A stretch of DNA of 52,790 nt from a virus (lineage: Duplodnaviria; Caudoviricetes). Of this stretch, positions 4,640 to 51,040 are shown piece after piece. The stretch is taken from the IMG/VR virus record IMGVR_UViG_3300049846_001564, positions 1-52,790 of that record; one strand, 5' to 3'. The position numbers and the translations under genes are program-made. The number at the start of each line of letters is the position of its first letter. Within the stretch, counting starts at the first letter, position 1. The notes beneath the pieces were generated by a model, which saw only the letters and a list, made by a program, of their open reading frames with translations, searched no databases and was not told where the DNA came from.

Positions 4640-5688
4640 ATACTTTTTTCTATTAATTCCTTAGCTTTGTCGAATGACATTGCATAGTATTTTTTCTTAT
4701 TATTACTAGTCTTTAAGATATCTAATTCTTGACAATACGCCAAAAAATCATTTATATCTTTTTGTCTCAAATCTAATTTCTGGTTAGAGACTAATGCTTT
4801 AAATTTAGAAGCTGACATCGATGGGTCTCCTTCTTTTCTAGATCCGTTCTGGTACAATAAATGCAATAACTTTAAATTGGTTTGCATTTGTTTATATTGC
4901 GGCGTATTCATTAATACCTTCATATCAGTAAAACTTTTTGTGATATAAAAAGCATTAAACCCGACACCCAACAAAATTATAAATTCCATAAATAAAGTTA
5001 GTAATACTAACGCCAATGTATTAGACTCATTCTCAGATTTCTTAGATTGATCTTTATTTTTGAAATCGCTTTCTAATGTAGAAATACGGGTAGTTCTCTC
5101 TTGTTCCAATGCTTTAATATTAGATTCATAGGTTTTTAGATCTTGCTTATCGCGAGTCCTAATGCGGCCATTTAAAGAGTTTTCGTATATCTGTTTAGCT
5201 TGTGTTTCATATACCGTTATTTTATTTTGGTAATACCCGAATATAGAATCCCTCTCCTGTTTGAATAATGAATCACTGCTAGTTTCTATTTTCTCAGTTT
5301 GGTCGATTAATCGATGTGCTCCATTTAGGCTTAAATAAAAAGACCCACCTACTAACATGATCACTAATAATGAACTCATAAATAATTGTATAGTAAATCT
5401 TTTTAGTTTTACCATATACATTACCAATTGTTCAAAAGCAAATCTCTTTAATAATTCATATCCACTCATAAAGACTATTATGAATCCGGATATTAGGAAT
5501 ACCTGATTGTTAAAAAATTCCGGAATAGAATCCGTAGCGTCTTTAACAAAAAAGTATGAAAAAATAACTGAGAATATATTACCTAAAAATGAAAAGTAAT
5601 ATAGCACTTTATCTAAAGTTAGAAAGTTATGCTCAAACGCGTTTACTTCAAACTTTTGTTTTAATTTTTCAAATAATTCTAATTTCAT
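4636..5688 (-). CDS. membrane protein with coiled-coil region, unknown function
   Basis: About 4 hydrophobic segments flanking a charged helical stretch. Confidence 0.6.
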   Translation of the reverse strand: MKLELFEKLKQKFEVNAFEHNFLTLDKVLYYFSFLGNIFSVIFSYFFVKDATDSIPEFFNNQVFLISGFIIVFMSGYELLKRFAFEQLVMYMVKLKRFTIQLFMSSLLVIMLVGGSFYLSLNGAHRLIDQTEKIETSSDSLFKQERDSIFGYYQNKITVYETQAKQIYENSLNGRIRTRDKQDLKTYESNIKALEQERTTRISTLESDFKNKDQSKKSENESNTLALVLLTLFMEFIILLGVGFNAFYITKSFTDMKVLMNTPQYKQMQTNLKLLHLLYQNGSRKEGDPSMSASKFKALVSNQKLDLRQKDINDFLAYCQELDILKTSNNKKKYYAMSFDKAKELIEKSI

Positions 5689-43389: not shown

Positions 43390-43753
43390 TGGTGGAGGAG
43401 GAGGGATTCGAACCCTCGTTTCCGATACCATTTTAAAGATTTTCTACAAGTTTAGTTATATTTTTCTAAATACACAAACTATCTATTTTTACAGAATAGA
43501 AACTGTTTACCACTCTTATTTATGATCACCTAATGGTCCGTGGTGATGGCTCTATTTTTAGGCTACTTCTAACACTTCAGGCTTGGCTTCCTGAGCAACA
43601 CGTGTAATAAAAGTTGGGATACTCATCATATCCTCAGAGTTATAAATGTTTCCACTTATAGTTACCTATTAATTTTTTAATCGCACACATTAATAGGCAA
43701 TGCGATACTTGCTTGTCAATAAACTAAATATCGGGGCTTTCCATGTCTCCCCC
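43390..43753 (-). ncRNA. ssrA: tmRNA
   Basis: GGGGGAG/CTCCTCC-ACCA with G3.U70; T arm GAGGG-TTCGAAT-CCCTC; tag ORF 43653-43558 GNIYNSEDMMSIPTFITRVAQEAKPEVLEVA*. Confidence 0.9.
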
Positions 43754-44219: not shown

Positions 44220-44222
44220 TAG

Positions 44223-44295
44223 TACCTCTACCGAGATTCGAACTCGGACAAACAGTTTCTAAGACTGTCCTGACTACCAATTACAGCATAGAGGC
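44223..44295 (-). tRNA. tRNA-Leu(UAG), short variable loop
   Basis: ACAGT-CTTAGAA-ACTGT; variable loop TTGT. Confidence 0.85.
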
Positions 44296-44652: not shown

Positions 44653-44666
44653 TTTTTAAAATTTAG

Positions 44667-44739
44667 TACCCGAACCGAGATTCGAACTCGGACACTTAGG
44701 TTTTGAGTCTAATACGACTACCAATTACGTCATTCGGGC
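44667..44739 (-). tRNA. tRNA-Leu(CAA), short variable loop
   Basis: Loop CTCAAAA; variable loop GTGT. Confidence 0.85.
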
Positions 44740-44813: not shown

Positions 44814-44819
44814 TTTTTG

Positions 44820-44892
44820 TACCCCCACTCGGATTCGAACCGAGACACTTAGATTTTAAGCCTAATACGACTACCAATTACGTCATGGGGGC
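44820..44892 (-). tRNA. tRNA-Leu(UAA), short variable loop
   Basis: TTAGG-CTTAAAA-TCTAA; variable loop GTGT. Confidence 0.85.
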
Positions 44893-45836: not shown

Positions 45837-46250
45837 TTACTGATTCTTTTCATAACCAGAAAGATACCCAATAATATTTTGTTTACCAACCGGATTCATA
45901 CTATGAACCAAATAATCAGGTAATTTAAGTTTATGATCTATACAAAAGTCTACTAACCATTTAGCACATTCATATCCTGTCTTTTCTTTAAACCGTGAAT
46001 AGTTTCTATTATATGCATCCGGACCTTCATACATAGTAGGAGCATAATGTTCATCAGCTAAATCATGATCAAATGAAATTAATTCCGGGAAAGCACCATC
46101 CTCATCAAACTTATTAGTTATTTCCTGAATAAACTCATCATACGACCTAACTACTACCCATCGTAAATTATTATACAATGTATTATGAGTATATTTAAAA
46201 GCGTCCATAGGGCTTCTAAAATCATCTAAGAATAAATTATATTTCATCAT
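45837..46250 (-). CDS. cyclic-phosphate-processing receiver-like domain protein
   Basis: LFLDD.R, ISFDHDL, TGYECAKWL, VHSMNPVG. Confidence 0.75.
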   Translation of the reverse strand: MMKYNLFLDDFRSPMDAFKYTHNTLYNNLRWVVVRSYDEFIQEITNKFDEDGAFPELISFDHDLADEHYAPTMYEGPDAYNRNYSRFKEKTGYECAKWLVDFCIDHKLKLPDYLVHSMNPVGKQNIIGYLSGYEKNQ

Positions 46251-47942: not shown

Positions 47943-48015
47943 TAGCCCCTATCTGAATCGAACAGATACCCTTCGGGTCAAAGCCGAATACACTCAACCA
48001 TTATGCTAAGGGGCA
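47943..48015 (-). tRNA. tRNA-Gln(UUG)
   Basis: TTCGG-CTTTGAC-CCGAA. Confidence 0.85.
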
Positions 48016-48018
48016 ATA

Positions 48019-48204
48019 TTAAATACTATCAGAAATTTCTTTTTTAGTTAATCGTTTCAACCAGGTCCTTCTAAGTTTAGAAAATAGATTTCTTTGTATT
48101 TTACTTTTTCTTTTTTTAGACATTTTGTTATCGCAACACGGGCACTTCATGCCTCCTGGACCACCTATATATAGGAATCCAGCCTCTTTATATAAATCTT
48201 TCAT
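48019..48204 (-). CDS. small basic protein, 61 aa, with CPCC
   Basis: MKDLYKEAG..GPGGMKCPCC..; start placed after tRNA-Gly. Confidence 0.55.
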   Translation of the reverse strand: MKDLYKEAGFLYIGGPGGMKCPCCDNKMSKKRKSKIQRNLFSKLRRTWLKRLTKKEISDSI

Positions 48205-48219
48205 AATATATAATTTTAG

Positions 48220-48290
48220 AGCAGGTAATGGAAATCGAATCCACAACTGCGACTTGGCAAGCCGCTGTATTACCATTATACTATACCTGC
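48220..48290 (-). tRNA. tRNA-Gly(GCC)
   Basis: GCGGC-TTGCCAA-GTCGC. Confidence 0.9.
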
Positions 48291-48295
48291 TTATG

Positions 48296-48369
48296 AGCAC
48301 GTGATCGGCATCGAACCGACTCTATTCCTGGTTGGAAGCCAGGTGCACCACCATTTATGCGTCACATGC
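48296..48369 (-). tRNA. tRNA-Gly(UCC)
   Basis: CCTGG-CTTCCAA-CCAGG. Confidence 0.9.
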
Positions 48370-48379
48370 TTATTTTAAT

Positions 48380-48517
48380 TGGTGCGGTGAGTGGTAGTTT
48401 ATCCCCACGTCTCCCAGTACTCGACCGGGCACGCTACTTTGAAATATTAACTAGTTTATTAAGAAGGCCTTCTTAATATAGTCGCGACTAAAATATTCCA
48501 TTCTGCGCCATCACCAA
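48380..48517 (-). ncRNA. tRNA-like RNA with ~60-nt insertion in the D loop
   Basis: GGTGA/TCACC acceptor, ACCA end, GCGC/GCGT D stem, CCCGG-TCGAGTA-CTGGG arm, non-consensus T loop. Confidence 0.45.
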
Positions 48518-48519
48518 CG

Positions 48520-48591
48520 TACCGATACTGAAACTCGAATTCAGATTAATGCCTTATGAGAGCACTGTAATTGCCTTTATACGATATCGAT
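48520..48591 (-). tRNA. tRNA(CAU), elongator Met or Ile2
   Basis: GTGCT-CTCATAA-GGCAT. Confidence 0.8.
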
Positions 48592-48596
48592 ATTAG

Positions 48597-48674
48597 TAGC
48601 GAGGGTGGGATTCGAACCCACATTATGAACTGCTTATGAGACAGACGCTGGTAACCATTCCAGTCCTCCTCGCG
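48597..48674 (-). tRNA. tRNA-Met(CAU), initiator-like acceptor
   Basis: C1/U72 mismatch, CGCGAGG acceptor, loop CTCATAA. Confidence 0.75.
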
Positions 48675-48679
48675 ATATG

Positions 48680-48755
48680 TCTAGCATCCAGGATTCGAAC
48701 CTGGGCTTTCTGCGCCCCAAACGCAGCCGGAAAAACCTGACTTCCGTAATGCTAG
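48680..48755 (-). tRNA. tRNA-Pro(UGG)
   Basis: CTGCG-TTTGGGG-CGCAG; C1-G72, A73. Confidence 0.9.
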
Positions 48756-48838
48756 ATAAAAAAGAATCCAACGTTCCCCCGAGTGTGCTATTCTACTTTA
48801 CACCATGGGCGCCTCCCAGAGTGTTCTGATTCTTTATG

Positions 48839-48910
48839 CGGTCTATGAGGGTTACGATCCCTCTACCCCACCGTGACAGGATGGTATGATAGCCAGTTCA
48901 CCAATAGACC
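48839..48910 (-). tRNA. tRNA-Asp(GUC)
   Basis: CCATC-CTGTCAC-GGTGG, G73. Confidence 0.9.
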
Positions 48911-48953
48911 GGGTCGCCCTTTTTATTTTAAATGCCGGGCACAGCATTCAAAG

Positions 48954-49027
48954 TAGCCCCAACGGAAGTCGAATCCGTATCGCAGGATTGAAAGTCCTGC
49001 ATCCTAAGCCATTTAGACGATGGGGCC
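48954..49027 (-). tRNA. tRNA-Glu(UUC)
   Basis: CAGGA-CTTTCAA-TCCTG. Confidence 0.9.
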
Positions 49028-49108
49028 ATATTATCCGCAATATTCCGCGGATAAGTTTTAAATTTACCAATATGTCAAAGATCAATAATATAATCGAAAT
49101 TTAATTAG

Positions 49109-49199
49109 TGCGCTCGGTTGGATTCGAACCAACGCGGGGATTTGTCATCCCATCGGTTTAAAAGACCGGACCATTCGACCTGACTAAGGATACGAGCGC
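49109..49199 (-). tRNA. tRNA-Lys(UUU) with long variable arm
   Basis: CGGT-CTTTTAA-ACCG; variable arm GGGAT-GACAA-ATCCC; acceptor GCGCTCG/CGAGCGC-A. Confidence 0.8.
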
Positions 49200-49208
49200 A
49201 TTTATATA

Positions 49209-49265
49209 GCGCTCTTTCCTTAGAGCGCATTAACGTTTATATTTTCGTTTATATTTCATTTTCAT
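49209..49265 (-). promoter_or_regulatory. Lys-rich leader MKMKYKRKYKR* (49265-49230) plus hairpin GCGCTCT/AGAGCGC
   Basis: 5 of 11 codons are AAA; the hairpin 3' arm is also complementary to the tRNA-Lys 5' end. Confidence 0.6.
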
Positions 49266-49279
49266 TCTTTTTTTAATCG

Positions 49280-49351
49280 AGCCAACACTGAAAATCGAAT
49301 TCAGATATCTACCTTACCAAGGTAGCGTAATAGCCTTTATACTATGTCGGC
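49280..49351 (-). tRNA. tRNA-Thr(GGU)
   Basis: CTACC-TTGGTAA-GGTAG. Confidence 0.9.
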
Positions 49352-49357
49352 TTAATG

Positions 49358-49429
49358 CGGGGGAGATTGGTAACGATCCAATATCCGGTGCTTAACAGGC
49401 ACTCGCTAATCCATTTCAGCTACACCCCC
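49358..49429 (-). tRNA. tRNA-Asn(GUU)
   Basis: GTGC-CTGTTAA-GCAC, G73. Confidence 0.85.
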
Positions 49430-49435
49430 ATTATG

Positions 49436-49757
49436 TTGCCCTAAACTCTCTTAGGCTTTTATACCTATTGTAGGCGCGGCATTCGGCGCCTCGTTATTCG
49501 GAATTTCTTCCTACAGTTTATACGAAGGGCGTCCTACCTTTGAACGATCTGGCCGAAGCCAGAGTAGGACTCGAACCTACATTTCCCCTTGATCTTGCCG
49601 GTAAACTCTCTTGAGATTTTACACCCATTGTAGGCGTAGCATGAACGCCTCGTTGTTCAGAATTTCTTCCTACAGTTTACCTCGACCGGCGTTTTTCTAT
49701 TAAACTACCTGGACGCTAAGCGTCCTGGGTGGGATTCGAACCCACATCTCCGGTTTC
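49436..49757 (-). repeat. two tandem ~160-nt units, each a permuted tRNA-like module plus a conserved ~85-nt structured tail
   Basis: Tails 49436-49520 and 49595-49680 share TAAACTGTAGGAAGAAATTC..AACGAGGCG..CGCCTACAAT..AAGAGAGTTTA. Confidence 0.8.
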
Positions 49758-49758
49758 G

Positions 49759-49831
49759 TGCGATGGGTTGGTACCGAGCCAACATCTACGGATTTTCAGT
49801 CCGCTGCATAGACCATCTTTGCTACCACCGC
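49759..49831 (-). tRNA. tRNA-Phe(GAA)
   Basis: GCGGA-CTGAAAA-TCCGT. Confidence 0.85.
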
Positions 49832-49844
49832 ATATTCAGATAAT

Positions 49845-49878
49845 AAAAAACCCGACTAATCTTTTGGACCGTCGGGTT
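49845..49878 (-). terminator. intrinsic terminator/attenuator just upstream of the tRNA array
   Basis: AACCCGAC..GTCGGGTT followed by a T-run on the minus strand. Confidence 0.8.
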
Positions 49879-49904
49879 AATTAATCATTAATCTATTCAA
49901 ACCA

Positions 49905-50054
49905 TCAAACCATATCTTTTAACGATTTCAAACCCTGTAGTCCAGTTCCTTTATCACTATTATCAAGCACCGGGCAAAAGCCTATCTGTGCCGATGTAGT
50001 AATCTCGGTTCTTGTATACCAATTCGTATGTTGTAATCGTTTCATTGAAGTCAT
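49905..50054 (-). promoter_or_regulatory. 49-aa leader peptide containing all 20 amino acids
   Basis: MTSMKRLQHTNWYTRTEITTSAQIGFCPVLDNSDKGTGLQGLKSLKDMV*; ATATTTAT motif just upstream (~50065-50072). Confidence 0.75.
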
Positions 50055-50119
50055 TATAATTTTATATAAATATAGATGATTTTTAAAAAACCACCAAAAT
50101 AATTTTATTTTTTTTTTCT

Positions 50120-50166
50120 GAACTTATTTTGGAATCGAACCAAATTACCTAACCATTAGATAAGTT
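50120..50166 (-). ncRNA. anticodon-less mini tRNA-like element
   Basis: AACTTAT-CTAATGGTTAG-GTAA-TTTGG-TTCGATT-CCAAA-ATAAGTT. Confidence 0.45.
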
Positions 50167-50174
50167 AAAATAAA

Positions 50175-51040
50175 ACGCTGAGATTATACGTTTATACGTC
50201 ACGACTTTCAAAGGATTATCTTGTTCCCTTTTTATCCAGAAGCTTTTGACTTCTACCTTGACAATGCCGATTGGTTAGACCAATCACTCCTTGAGTTGCT
50301 ATTTATCGGTTACTCTCTACATACTAACTCTTACTTAACCCTGCCGAGCTAATTAATCCTTGCGAGACTATAAGGCTTTCTACAAAATCAATATCAGCTT
50401 GCGACTAATATTGGCATCCGACAACCGGATACTAGGTAGGCATCTTTCACCTGCAACTGACAAGCACTTTTGCTTTTATGTTTCCAATGAGATTTTCATT
50501 AACAGTGAAATTCATAGTAGCGACTTGTGGATGGATGAAAGTAGTGGCTCGTCATTCCAGCTTTCCCAACTTTTGGAAGGGAAAATACTAAACTACTCTC
50601 TAAGATGTCCCCATCTTCATATTTTAAGATTCTTTCATAAAATGAACTTGGTGAGTTCATAATAAGGAAAACAGCAACACCACTTGGTTATTTTCTTGCT
50701 TTTCAGCTTTAAAGCTCCTCTAATATTGAAACACGCAATAGTACATTTAGATAAATGTATTTCTTACAATACTTCTATGAATTATTCTTATTGGAGTTCC
50801 CCCCTCAACCCAACAACCCACATTGCCGAGTCACCAAATCCGTTCCGTCTCAGTGTTACCCAAACGTACTTGGATCCAATGATATTCCACTTGCCTACTC
50901 GAGTCCAAATATTTCTATTTGGGCCGCAAACTACTTCAGTCAAAGTAATTCACTTTATACCACTTTCATGGTTTATTTAACGACTATAGGCCGCCAATAT
51001 CTTTTCATTAATCCAAATTCCGGACTAATTGGATACAAAT
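50175..51040 (-). ncRNA. large structured non-coding RNA candidate (~860 nt, GOLLD-sized)
   Basis: No minus-strand ORF in the track, raised GC, many hairpins including GNRA loops, next to the tRNA array, boxA-like site upstream. Confidence 0.6.

Follow-up and report, generated by a model that had tools for sequence, protein, structure and literature searches.

Why would a phage gene for a lysine transfer RNA (tRNA) be preceded by a lysine-rich micro-open reading frame (micro-ORF) and by a hairpin that copies the start of the tRNA? We addressed this question for the leader of tRNA-Lys(UUU) in IMG/VR virus record IMGVR_UViG_3300049846_001564, a single contig of 52,790 bases from a freshwater phage, the whole of which we refer to as the window. 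We consider the region to be a cis-acting, attenuator-like leader of tRNA-Lys(UUU) whose output is the folding of the tRNA, as a sequence-only reading of this DNA had proposed, and we put the probability of this interpretation at roughly one-half. It is very probable that the region is a conserved, functional, and tRNA-Lys-specific cis-element. The recurrence of a lysine-rich micro-ORF with a tRNA-mimicking hairpin in unrelated phages suggests that ribosomes sense the supply of lysine-tRNA on the micro-ORF and switch the folding and maturation of the tRNA.

The leader and its tRNA

The coordinates of the leader and of tRNA-Lys(UUU) are all on the minus strand. The anatomy described in the sequence-only reading (micro-ORF, 1-nucleotide [nt] gap, hairpin, 9-nt spacer, and tRNA) is correct to the base. 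The leader begins with an A-rich 5' untranslated stretch, GATTAAAAAAAGA (49266..49278), that has no Shine-Dalgarno (SD) motif. It is followed by the micro-ORF MKMKYKRKYKR* (49230..49265), with its ATG at 49265-49263 and its TAA at 49232-49230. In alignment, the conserved start of related leaders corresponds to a second in-frame ATG, at 49259.

The micro-ORF is rich in AAA, as had been reported: of the 10 codons that follow the ATG, 5 are AAA (codons 2, 4, 6, 8, and 10). Counted by frame, there are five AAA in frame and one in each of the other two frames. When the body of the ORF was shuffled, the mean was 2.4 in-frame AAA of 10, and five or more were found with P = 0.006. AT-richness, which had been raised as a possible source of the AAA content, therefore accounts for approximately half of the count, because the shuffles average 2.4 compared to the 5 observed, but the five in frame exceed what it yields alone. 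The in-frame phasing of the AAA codons is due to a 6-nt periodicity (NNNAAA x5).

A single base (49229) separates the TAA from the hairpin, which consists of a 5' arm, GCGCTCT (49228-49222), a loop, AAGGAA (49221-49216), and a 3' arm, AGAGCGC (49215-49209), with a predicted free energy of -12.1 kcal/mol. We distinguish four RNA segments. Segment 1 is the 5' arm, GCGCUCU (49222..49228); it repeats the start of the tRNA, as had been noticed (nt 1-6 exactly, 6/7 identical over nt 1-7), and can pair with the 3' acceptor strand of the tRNA. Segment 2, the anti-acceptor segment, comprises the last base of the 5' arm, the loop AAGGAA, and the 3' arm AGAGCGC (49209..49222) and is complementary to tRNA nt 1-6 and 10-15. 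Segment 3 is the tRNA 5' strand (49199-49185), and segment 4 is the 3' acceptor strand (49116-49110). The ability of the 3' arm to pair with the tRNA 5' strand was borne out, and the sequence-only reading had understated the complementarity: the loop and 3' arm together (UAAGGAAAGAGCGC) pair with tRNA nt 1-15 in two blocks of 6 base pairs (bp), for a total of 12 bp and -17.7 kcal/mol (RNAduplex). Shuffled sequences gave -7.3 +/- 2.2 kcal/mol, and 0.04% of 5000 shuffles attained -17.7. The hairpin loop matches the atypical D-side sequence UCCUU of the tRNA, and the pairing of segment 2 with the tRNA 5' strand is also present in the minimum free energy (MFE) structures. The 9-nt A/U-rich linker between hairpin and tRNA, TATATAAAT / UAUAUAAAU (49200..49208), would become the loop of this anti-acceptor hairpin and has a U at position -1 of the RNase P site.

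The tRNA-Lys(UUU) gene itself (49108..49199, 92 nt) was called by ARAGORN, with the anticodon ttt at position 38, and passes the Rfam model RF00005 with 41 bits compared to a gathering score of 29 (49109-49199). Folded alone, its MFE structure is a cloverleaf of -30.0 kcal/mol with an acceptor-stem probability of 0.97. Normally, tRNA-Lys is a class I tRNA of about 73-77 nt with a short variable loop. The usual class I architecture is not found here: the tRNA is 92 nt long, carries a 5-bp extra variable arm (GGGAU-GACAA-AUCCC, 49151-49137), and has a U-U mismatch in the D stem. Long variable arms that form a hairpin recur, in tRNA-Lys(UUU) of 85-94 nt, in several unrelated leader-bearing lineages (L243/L323, L256/L343, L304, L313, L300/L160, L227, and the window; L and a number designate loci of the comparative set). 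The passages on cleavage in PMC11464382 place the AriB cut in Escherichia coli tRNA-Lys at 40/41, a site that adjoins the extra-arm region. In the text covered by a full-text literature search, no paper on long-armed phage tRNA-Lys(UUU) was found.

Recurrence in other phages

The leader is conserved rather than a one-off. At least 12 phage lineages, with hairpins that cannot be aligned, have a common design at tRNA-Lys(UUU): a micro-ORF started by ATG-AAA, a stop that abuts a hairpin, an A-rich linker, and then the tRNA. The first wider set was made up of loci fetched, for an unrelated reason, by a 17-mer common to the window and L061. In this set, several different tRNA-Lys(UUU) genes were preceded by aaaaATGAAACGAAAAC, a stop after 4-10 codons, a hairpin beside the stop, and an A-rich linker leading to the tRNA. 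Homologous micro-ORFs encode MKRKHKYKR* (L207), MKTKLKYKR* (L504), MKRKQ*, and MKRKR*, and the peptide is not conserved beyond MK(R)K.

To describe the variation among leaders, we distinguished three architectures with a common MKRK start. In type A, the type of the window, the stop lies upstream of the hairpin (25 rows, including two that concern a preceding tRNA). The definition of type A comprises an ATG-AAR start, at least two Lys codons, a stop within approximately 3 nt of a hairpin, and a 3' arm complementary to the 5' end of a tRNA-Lys(UUU) lying 5-22 nt on. The window has all of these features, with an offset of +1, 12 bp of complementarity, and a 9-nt linker, and so do 11 other families. 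In type B (26 rows), the ORF enters the tRNA or ends no more than 12 nt before it, and the stop falls at tRNA nt 8-10 in 12/26 rows. In type C (4 rows with a tRNA in range; alignment A2), a conserved basic protein of approximately 45 amino acids (aa) ends inside the tRNA.

We then quantified the association with tRNA-Lys. We scanned viral contigs for the exact 16-mer AAAATGAAACGAAAAC from the leader start, with no condition on tRNAs, and analyzed 117 loci among the matches listed. A tRNA-Lys was present no more than 200 nt downstream in 30/117 and another tRNA in 2/117; the remaining 85/117, still among the matches listed, had none and were mostly SD-led starts of ordinary genes. As a census of specificity, we counted ORFs that start with MK, contain at least two Lys codons, and end near a tRNA, using loci fetched by unrelated criteria. 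Such a leader ORF was found near 7/19 tRNA-Lys(UUU), 1/6 tRNA-Lys(CUU), and 13/494 other tRNAs. A metagenome scan (120 loci) added 25 distinct leaders before tRNA-Lys(UUU); 90 matches were without a tRNA, and one match before tRNA-Ala was the end of an ordinary gene. Across 185,579 species genomes, there were 78 pattern matches, and the three that preceded tRNA-Lys were all on contigs of metagenome-assembled genomes with 2 to 26 tRNAs. The leader belongs to phages.

Other searches delimit this distribution. The exact 20-mer of the hairpin and a 29-mer of the window tRNA had 0 matches in viral contigs. A blastn search of 48900-49450 against cultured phages aligned only the tRNA-Asn/Thr(GGU) part (query nt 21-140), with nothing over the leader or tRNA-Lys(UUU), and blastn of four leader-plus-tRNA queries against cultured phages gave alignments that begin only at the tRNA, with no leader found. 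Loci found via the cREC_REC protein encoded in the window contained tRNAs in 0/11 cases, and among the best 20 of 66 loci found via its helicase, tRNAs occurred in L061, L015, and L014 only.

Two side observations concern similar arrangements. In the viral contig L227, one of the two non-Lys cases, an MKRK leader (at approximately 6406 in motif orientation) precedes tRNA-Arg(UCU); its ORF, MKRKRRKTQEHL*, contains an AGA codon and has its stop at tRNA nt 8-10, and a 94-nt tRNA-Lys(UUU) follows. In T5-like phages (L385, Salmonella phage vB_SenS_UTK0009, 237-401), an annotated hypothetical ORF of 54 aa ends 1 nt before tRNA-Lys, and its sequence is unrelated to the MKRK leaders.

Contact between stop and hairpin, and predicted pairing with the tRNA

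In 11 hairpin families, the hairpin starts between -1 and +3 nt from the stop, and the product of the probabilities under a uniform null is 4e-11. A 12th family (L504, ORF MKTKLKYKR*), found with a pattern that demands neither an ATG nor a hairpin, has an offset of -1. Inside families, both the type of stop (TAA or TAG) and the ORF vary (MKRKPL, MKRKQL, and MKRKPI), including in length, and the contact between stop and hairpin is kept.

Covariation between hairpin and tRNA had been suggested as a check, and the result is clear. Using ten family representatives, we compared the pairing of each 3' arm with nt 1-18 of its own tRNA to permuted pairs. The summed energy was -119.6 kcal/mol for own pairs compared to -79.6 +/- 9.0 kcal/mol for permuted pairs, and 0/100,000 permutations were as low. 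The pairing of the 5' arm with the 3' end of its own tRNA also beat permuted pairings (p = 3e-5). Three control pairings were not significant (p = 0.06, 0.89, and 0.79), including that of the linker (tail) sequences, which have no complementarity to the tRNA (p = 0.89). The duplex covers the tRNA from nt 1 in 13/16 leaders. The mean z over 339 phage tRNAs whose spacers measure 35 nt or more was -0.05, with Lys(UUU) the lowest class at -1.03; such complementarity is therefore not general to phage tRNA leaders. Pairing is also kept through changes within families: in the group of L083, L114, L130, and L269, positions alternate between G-U and A-U or between C-G and U-G, and between L087 and L340 a G-C pair is replaced by A-U.

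Folding predictions

We computed acceptor-stem probabilities for 16 leaders with the hairpin arms either free or masked (held single-stranded). For the tRNA alone, the probability was 0.95-1.0. With the whole leader free, it was at least 0.94 in 10/16 leaders, 0.52 in 2, and 0.0 in 4. Masking the 5' arm, which mimics a ribosome at the stop, lowered the probability to 0.32 or less in 13/16 leaders, and masking both arms brought it back to 0.97-1.0. When the 3' arm was shuffled while the 5' arm was masked, mean probabilities were 0.74-0.98, and the native arm was at or below the 5th percentile in 14/16 leaders. The leader hairpin and the anti-acceptor hairpin are no more than 3 kcal/mol apart in 12/16 leaders; in the window, the anti-acceptor hairpin is at -16.2 kcal/mol and the leader hairpin at -12.1 kcal/mol. 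These predictions point to bistability, and the claim that a ribosome covering the 5' arm leads to a misfolded tRNA agrees with the 13 masked leaders; in the window, misfolding is predicted even without a ribosome.

A model for the leader

In the mechanism that we propose, the four RNA segments (hairpin 5' arm, loop plus 3' arm, tRNA 5' acceptor/D strand, and tRNA 3' acceptor strand) would compete for one another. If segments 1 and 2 pair, segments 3 and 4 could form the acceptor stem, and RNase P would mature the tRNA. A ribosome that translates the AAA-rich micro-ORF to its stop would cover segment 1, leaving segment 2 to capture the nascent segment 3, with the 9-nt linker as the loop; segment 1, once released, would pair with segment 4 and lock the precursor in a non-tRNA fold. 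If Lys-tRNA(UUU) is scarce, the ribosome would stall early on the AAA codons, pairing of segments 1 and 2 would stay intact, and more mature tRNA-Lys would be made. The outcome would be a homeostatic loop, possibly one that serves counter-defense. Translation of the ORF in the window, the decoding of AAA as the signal, the direction of control, the physiological trigger, and the fate of the misfolded precursor are all parts of this model that we infer.

Several observations weigh against the model, and the first group concerns folding. The window is one of the four leaders (with L245, L130, and L340) whose acceptor-stem probability is 0.0 with the whole leader free. In the nearest-neighbor model without a ribosome, its full-length clamp is at -47.3 kcal/mol compared to -42.1 kcal/mol for hairpin plus cloverleaf, and the MFE structure of the nascent RNA is already the anti-acceptor hairpin (-20.0 compared to -12.1 kcal/mol). 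Because the clamp is stable without a ribosome, the ON state would need kinetic trapping, and the OFF state would need no ribosome. Masking the 5' arm has little predicted effect in 3/16 leaders (L243, L087, and L146). Geometry also suggests that, where the ORF has only five codons, stalling at codon 4 would already bring the ribosome into contact with the base of the hairpin.

The second group concerns specificity and expression. Only 7/19 tRNA-Lys(UUU) in the unbiased loci carry the leader. Most instances were retrieved via a conserved 16-mer or 14-mer; consequently, the ATG and the AAA at codons 2 and 4 were fixed by the search in most of them, and the leaders independent of the search are those of the window, L080/L112, L087/L340, and L504. 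The tie to tRNA-Lys could in part reflect the common descent of one leader-plus-tRNA cassette. AAA is the commonest second codon of the genes of this phage (8/48), so that ATG-AAA could serve the efficiency of initiation rather than sensing. The leader was seen, unchanged, in the DNA run X2 only; contigs from two metatranscriptome libraries were confined to 50200-50700, the location of a GOLLD RNA (0-2 differences over 243-435 nt, with DNA carry-over possible), and are no evidence either way. Finally, it is hard to see what a phage would gain by shutting off a tRNA. On balance, the conservation, geometry, co-variation, and predicted folding fit the interpretation given in the sequence-only reading, and the clamp favored in the window without a ribosome would fit it only with kinetic trapping of the ON state.

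Alternative explanations

An alternative that we regard as unlikely is an untranslated RNA element. The hairpin would then govern the processing, stability, or folding of the precursor, whether it signals to RNase P, RNase E, or RNase III, blocks exonucleases, or chaperones folding; the A-rich ATGAAACGAAAA block would be conserved as an RNA or DNA motif; and the likeness to the tRNA would stem from repeated copying or gene conversion of the adjacent gene. In keeping with such an element, the RNA-library contigs do not cover the leader of the window, and the type A leaders have an SD core in 0/15 correctly retrieved rows, a count that leaves out the window row, for which another site in the window was picked. 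They start A-rich without SD, like the window's own genes: its 48 long ORFs have starts without SD and A/T-rich upstream regions. The 16-mer is conserved as nucleotides and not merely as codons, and hairpins also occur before other tRNAs, such as tRNA-Glu (49031-49054). Moreover, where the window has the hairpin, L061, the closest syntenic relative, has an intact tRNA-Lys(CUU), and the window stem could therefore descend from a collapsed tRNA.

Evidence from homologous leaders argues for translation. In type B and C leaders, which are from SD-using lineages, an SD core stands at the right distance, 4-16 nt before the ATG, in 21/32 cases, compared to 688/8869 (7.8%) for any ATG in the same loci. 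Alignment A2 shows the type C ORF to be conserved at the protein level, with gaps that stay in frame, and the common start is therefore a real initiation site, at least in type C. The stop tracks the hairpin in 12 families even as the kind of stop codon and the length of the ORF change, AAG replaces the AAA of the other leaders in L087, and a collapsed tRNA does not account for 3' arms that are complementary to the D side of the next tRNA (the window loop, L087, L245, and L193). The element also lacks a U-tract terminator and a match to any Rfam family.

We tried and rejected several specific identities for the region. It is not an intrinsic terminator: the minus strand of 49100-49270, where the hairpin is followed by UAUAUAAAU, has no terminator-like site, and the two terminator-like sites in 48000-50800 are elsewhere and on the plus strand. 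A promoter was rejected because 10 promoter-like matches compared to 7.3 +/- 2.5 in shuffles are no excess. No known RNA family is present at the leader in Rfam, and a cmscan of 49050-49300 with E up to 10 gave no T-box riboswitch, its matches being the tRNA and chance-level ones only.

A translated leader with a different logic is also improbable, in our judgment a little more so. The leader could be a constitutive brake or timer, a general report of ribosome activity, or a means of setting the fate of the ORF mRNA through RNase P cleavage and transfer-messenger RNA (tmRNA). A brake is consistent with the clamp being the predicted equilibrium without a ribosome in the window and three other leaders. 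For a role in mRNA fate, the window phage has a tmRNA, the conserved ~45-aa protein with the MKRK start overlaps tRNA-Lys, and 30 type B and C leaders end inside the tRNA or no more than 12 nt before it; in 13/30, the stop is at tRNA nt 8-10, and RNase P cleavage would therefore remove it. Type A ORFs, however, have their own stop upstream of the hairpin and so yield no non-stop mRNA, and we rejected the in-frame stop at nt 8-10 as a design feature because it occurs in approximately half of the overlapping leaders, which is not clearly above the one-third expected by chance. A brake or timer leaves unexplained both the stop that abuts the hairpin in 12 families and the tie to tRNA-Lys with a Lys-codon start.

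Least credible of all is a nonfunctional relic or chance arrangement, in which the ORF arose incidentally from an A-rich, hexamer-periodic spacer or is the start of a decayed ~45-aa gene and the hairpin is the acceptor stem of a deleted tRNA-Lys paralogue: AT-richness alone gives 2.4/10 in-frame AAA, L061 has tRNA-Lys(CUU) at the corresponding place, and some leaders look decayed (L313, where MKRKH* arises via a stop within a longer MKRKRKPTG frame, and L130, with an early TGA), but the architecture recurs in 12 families with unalignable hairpins against nulls of 4e-11 (geometry) and <1 in 100,000 (complementarity), changes within families keep the pairing, and the association is specific to tRNA-Lys. 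A deleted-tRNA relic was our first reading, given the order of genes in L061, which is the best syntenic relative (helicase 62% identical) and carries Phe, Asn, Thr(GGU), an alignable A-rich spacer, tRNA-Lys(CUU), tRNA-Lys(UUU), Glu, Asp, and Pro. We dropped it on finding the ORF-plus-hairpin design in unrelated phages and 3' arms complementary to the D side, although a deleted tRNA may be the evolutionary origin of the hairpin.

The overlapping protein family

The type C protein (MKRK..P+.RN...R.GAG.HGK..KA.RR..K) is encoded by an ORF whose last codons overlap the 5' end of tRNA-Lys(UUU). It was observed at L165:7333-7476 and in L171, L166, L218, L247, L248, and L160; in L166, RNase P cleavage would remove the stop of the ORF. 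Homologues are all unnamed or "hypothetical", in Atlas clusters of 65-157 members. We considered and rejected an identity similar to ArfA, which has no support from Pfam (PF03889), PHROG, or the PDB. A Pfam search with E up to 1 gave chance-level matches only, a PDB profile search gave one chance match (E = 0.97), and tblastn against cultured phages found nothing.

Genomic context

The window has a GC content of approximately 31% and is a fragment of a large phage genome, with nearly all of its long ORFs on the minus strand. We profiled ten long ORFs against Pfam and PHROGs, and the matches include a family-B DNA polymerase, a DnaB-type helicase, a class II ribonucleotide reductase, GroEL, a homologue of T4 endonuclease V, and a cREC_REC domain protein. 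ARAGORN detected 26 tRNA genes and a tmRNA in 43.3-49.8 kb, and Rfam added two tRNA-like matches beyond that set. A full-length GOLLD RNA (50175-50600, minus strand; Rfam, 250 bits) adjoins the tRNA array. Immediately upstream of the leader is tRNA-Thr(GGU) (49279..49351, minus strand; ARAGORN and Rfam, 57.9 bits), whose 3' end sets the start of the leader RNA. The syntenic Thr(GGU) of L061 likewise stands before a homologous A-rich leader.

Inside the tRNA array are a tmRNA (76 bits) and the cREC_REC "cyclic-phosphate processing receiver" protein, at 43390-43753 and 45837-46250, respectively, both on the minus strand; together with the tRNA-Lys leader, these hint at a theme of RNA damage and repair. 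All three tRNAs with Leu anticodons (44222-44295, 44666-44739, and 44819-44892, minus strand) are 74 nt long and do not have the long variable arm that is normal for tRNA-Leu. Leu-anticodon tRNAs of 74 nt were also noted in L061 and L015, and the Leu(UAA) of other phage arrays in the set is 87-89 nt.

Two tandem modules similar to Y RNA (YrlA) lie between tRNA-Phe and tRNA-Asn (49497-49609 and 49683-49754, minus strand). Each consists of a permuted tRNA-like domain plus a stem, and they score 30.8 and 22.3 bits, under the Rfam cutoff of 69. A YrlA-like element is also visible in L061 at approximately 5010-5190. Fragments resembling a T arm plus acceptor (GGTTCGAATCC... and then a 3' strand), which ARAGORN does not call, occur in several minus-strand spacers, namely upstream of tRNA-Met 48591, tRNA-Val 47260, tRNA-Trp 46926, and elsewhere. 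They may be more YrlA-like modules or tRNA remnants.

A 17-mer, GATCTTTGACATATTGG (window 49067-49083, minus strand; L078-L150), is present exactly in 73 viral contigs. In 51/73, tRNA genes lie no more than 400 nt away; the 17-mer often stands 7-25 nt ahead of a tRNA, whose identity varies, and in some cases it directly follows a terminator-like hairpin. It matches the first bases of the Rfam DUF2693 RNA model with E = 0.12. Could it be a promoter or a processing signal? An 8-bp hairpin, TTATCCGC/GCGGATAA (49031-49054, minus strand), ends 3 nt before tRNA-Glu; it is missing at the syntenic place in L061, and by eye it has no complementarity to the 5' end of tRNA-Glu.

Comparison with known systems

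The trp, his, leu, thr, and pheA attenuators use the position of a ribosome to pick between helices during transcription, and starvation for charged tRNA turns them ON. The tRNA-Lys leader resembles the trp/his type in its short ORF rich in codons for the regulated amino acid and in its mutually exclusive helices 1:2, 2:3, and 3:4, which are predicted here. It differs in that helix 3:4 is the acceptor stem of a tRNA, without a U-tract terminator, and in that the leader ORF is wholly upstream of segment 1, with a stop that abuts the hairpin. It is also phage-borne and inside a tRNA array. Because the sensor codons are read by the very tRNA whose production would be regulated, the loop would be direct.

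In the translation attenuation of ermC and cat, a ribosome stalled on the leader, in a drug- and peptide-dependent manner, remodels a hairpin and exposes a ribosome-binding site. The proposed mechanism is similar in that a ribosome on a short leader ORF would remodel an adjacent hairpin and free or sequester a downstream element after transcription has started, but here that element is a tRNA, and the peptide is not conserved beyond its first residues. T-box RNAs have no ORF, bind uncharged tRNA directly, and control genes for aminoacyl-tRNA synthetases or amino acids via a terminator or the SD sequence. Like a T-box, the leader is proposed to be a cis-RNA that adjusts a gene for translation supply to the state of a specific tRNA. 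The arfA and brfA genes are regulated by truncation of their own mRNA together with tmRNA. Types B and C resemble them in having a small basic ORF whose 3' end is set by an RNA processing site, whereas the ORF in the window has its own stop and the ~45-aa family has neither a Pfam ArfA match nor a PDB relative.

The phage context of tRNA-Lys(UUU), the isoacceptor hit by known anticodon nucleases, is shared with the counter-defense of T5 and T4. The sequence-only reading had named tRNA-Lys(UUU) as the target of PrrC and of AriB from PARIS, and the relevant passages of PMC10264068 and PMC11464382 say so in print. In those passages, T5 tRNA-Lys acts against PARIS AriB (PMC11464382), and T4 repairs tRNA-Lys cut by PrrC (PMC10264068). 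Unlike the leader considered here, what these portions of PMC11464382 and PMC10264068 describe is nuclease-resistant variants and repair rather than regulation of a tRNA gene; the words "leader" and "upstream" do not occur in that portion of PMC10264068, nor does "upstream of the tRNA" in that of PMC11464382. A full-text literature search, whose scope does not extend to most subscription journals, found neither a leader ORF nor a fold switch described before a phage tRNA gene in the text it covers. To our knowledge, there is no leader-peptide attenuator with tRNA folding as its output, and hardly any tRNA gene of bacteria or phages is known to be regulated individually once transcription has started.

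We offer a broader generalization more tentatively. Many phages may carry a self-regulating tRNA-Lys in which the acceptor stem is the last helix of an attenuator, such that fluent reading of AAA would lead to misfolding and starvation for Lys-tRNA(UUU), for example by nucleases of the PrrC, RloC, or PARIS type, would lead to maturation. The hairpin would act as a relay in SD-less hosts, and in SD hosts the ORF would run directly into the tRNA. If so, tRNA maturation under the control of translation would have its first example here, together with a built-in sensor of defense systems that target tRNA.

If the attenuator interpretation is true, phage tRNA arrays would hold feedback-controlled genes, and a phage would have a direct molecular route for sensing depletion of the tRNA that is most attacked by anticodon nucleases. 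A compact module of approximately 60 nt would couple the status of translation to the production of a stable RNA, and the comparative set, with its 12 hairpin families and three architectures, provides natural compensatory variants of it.

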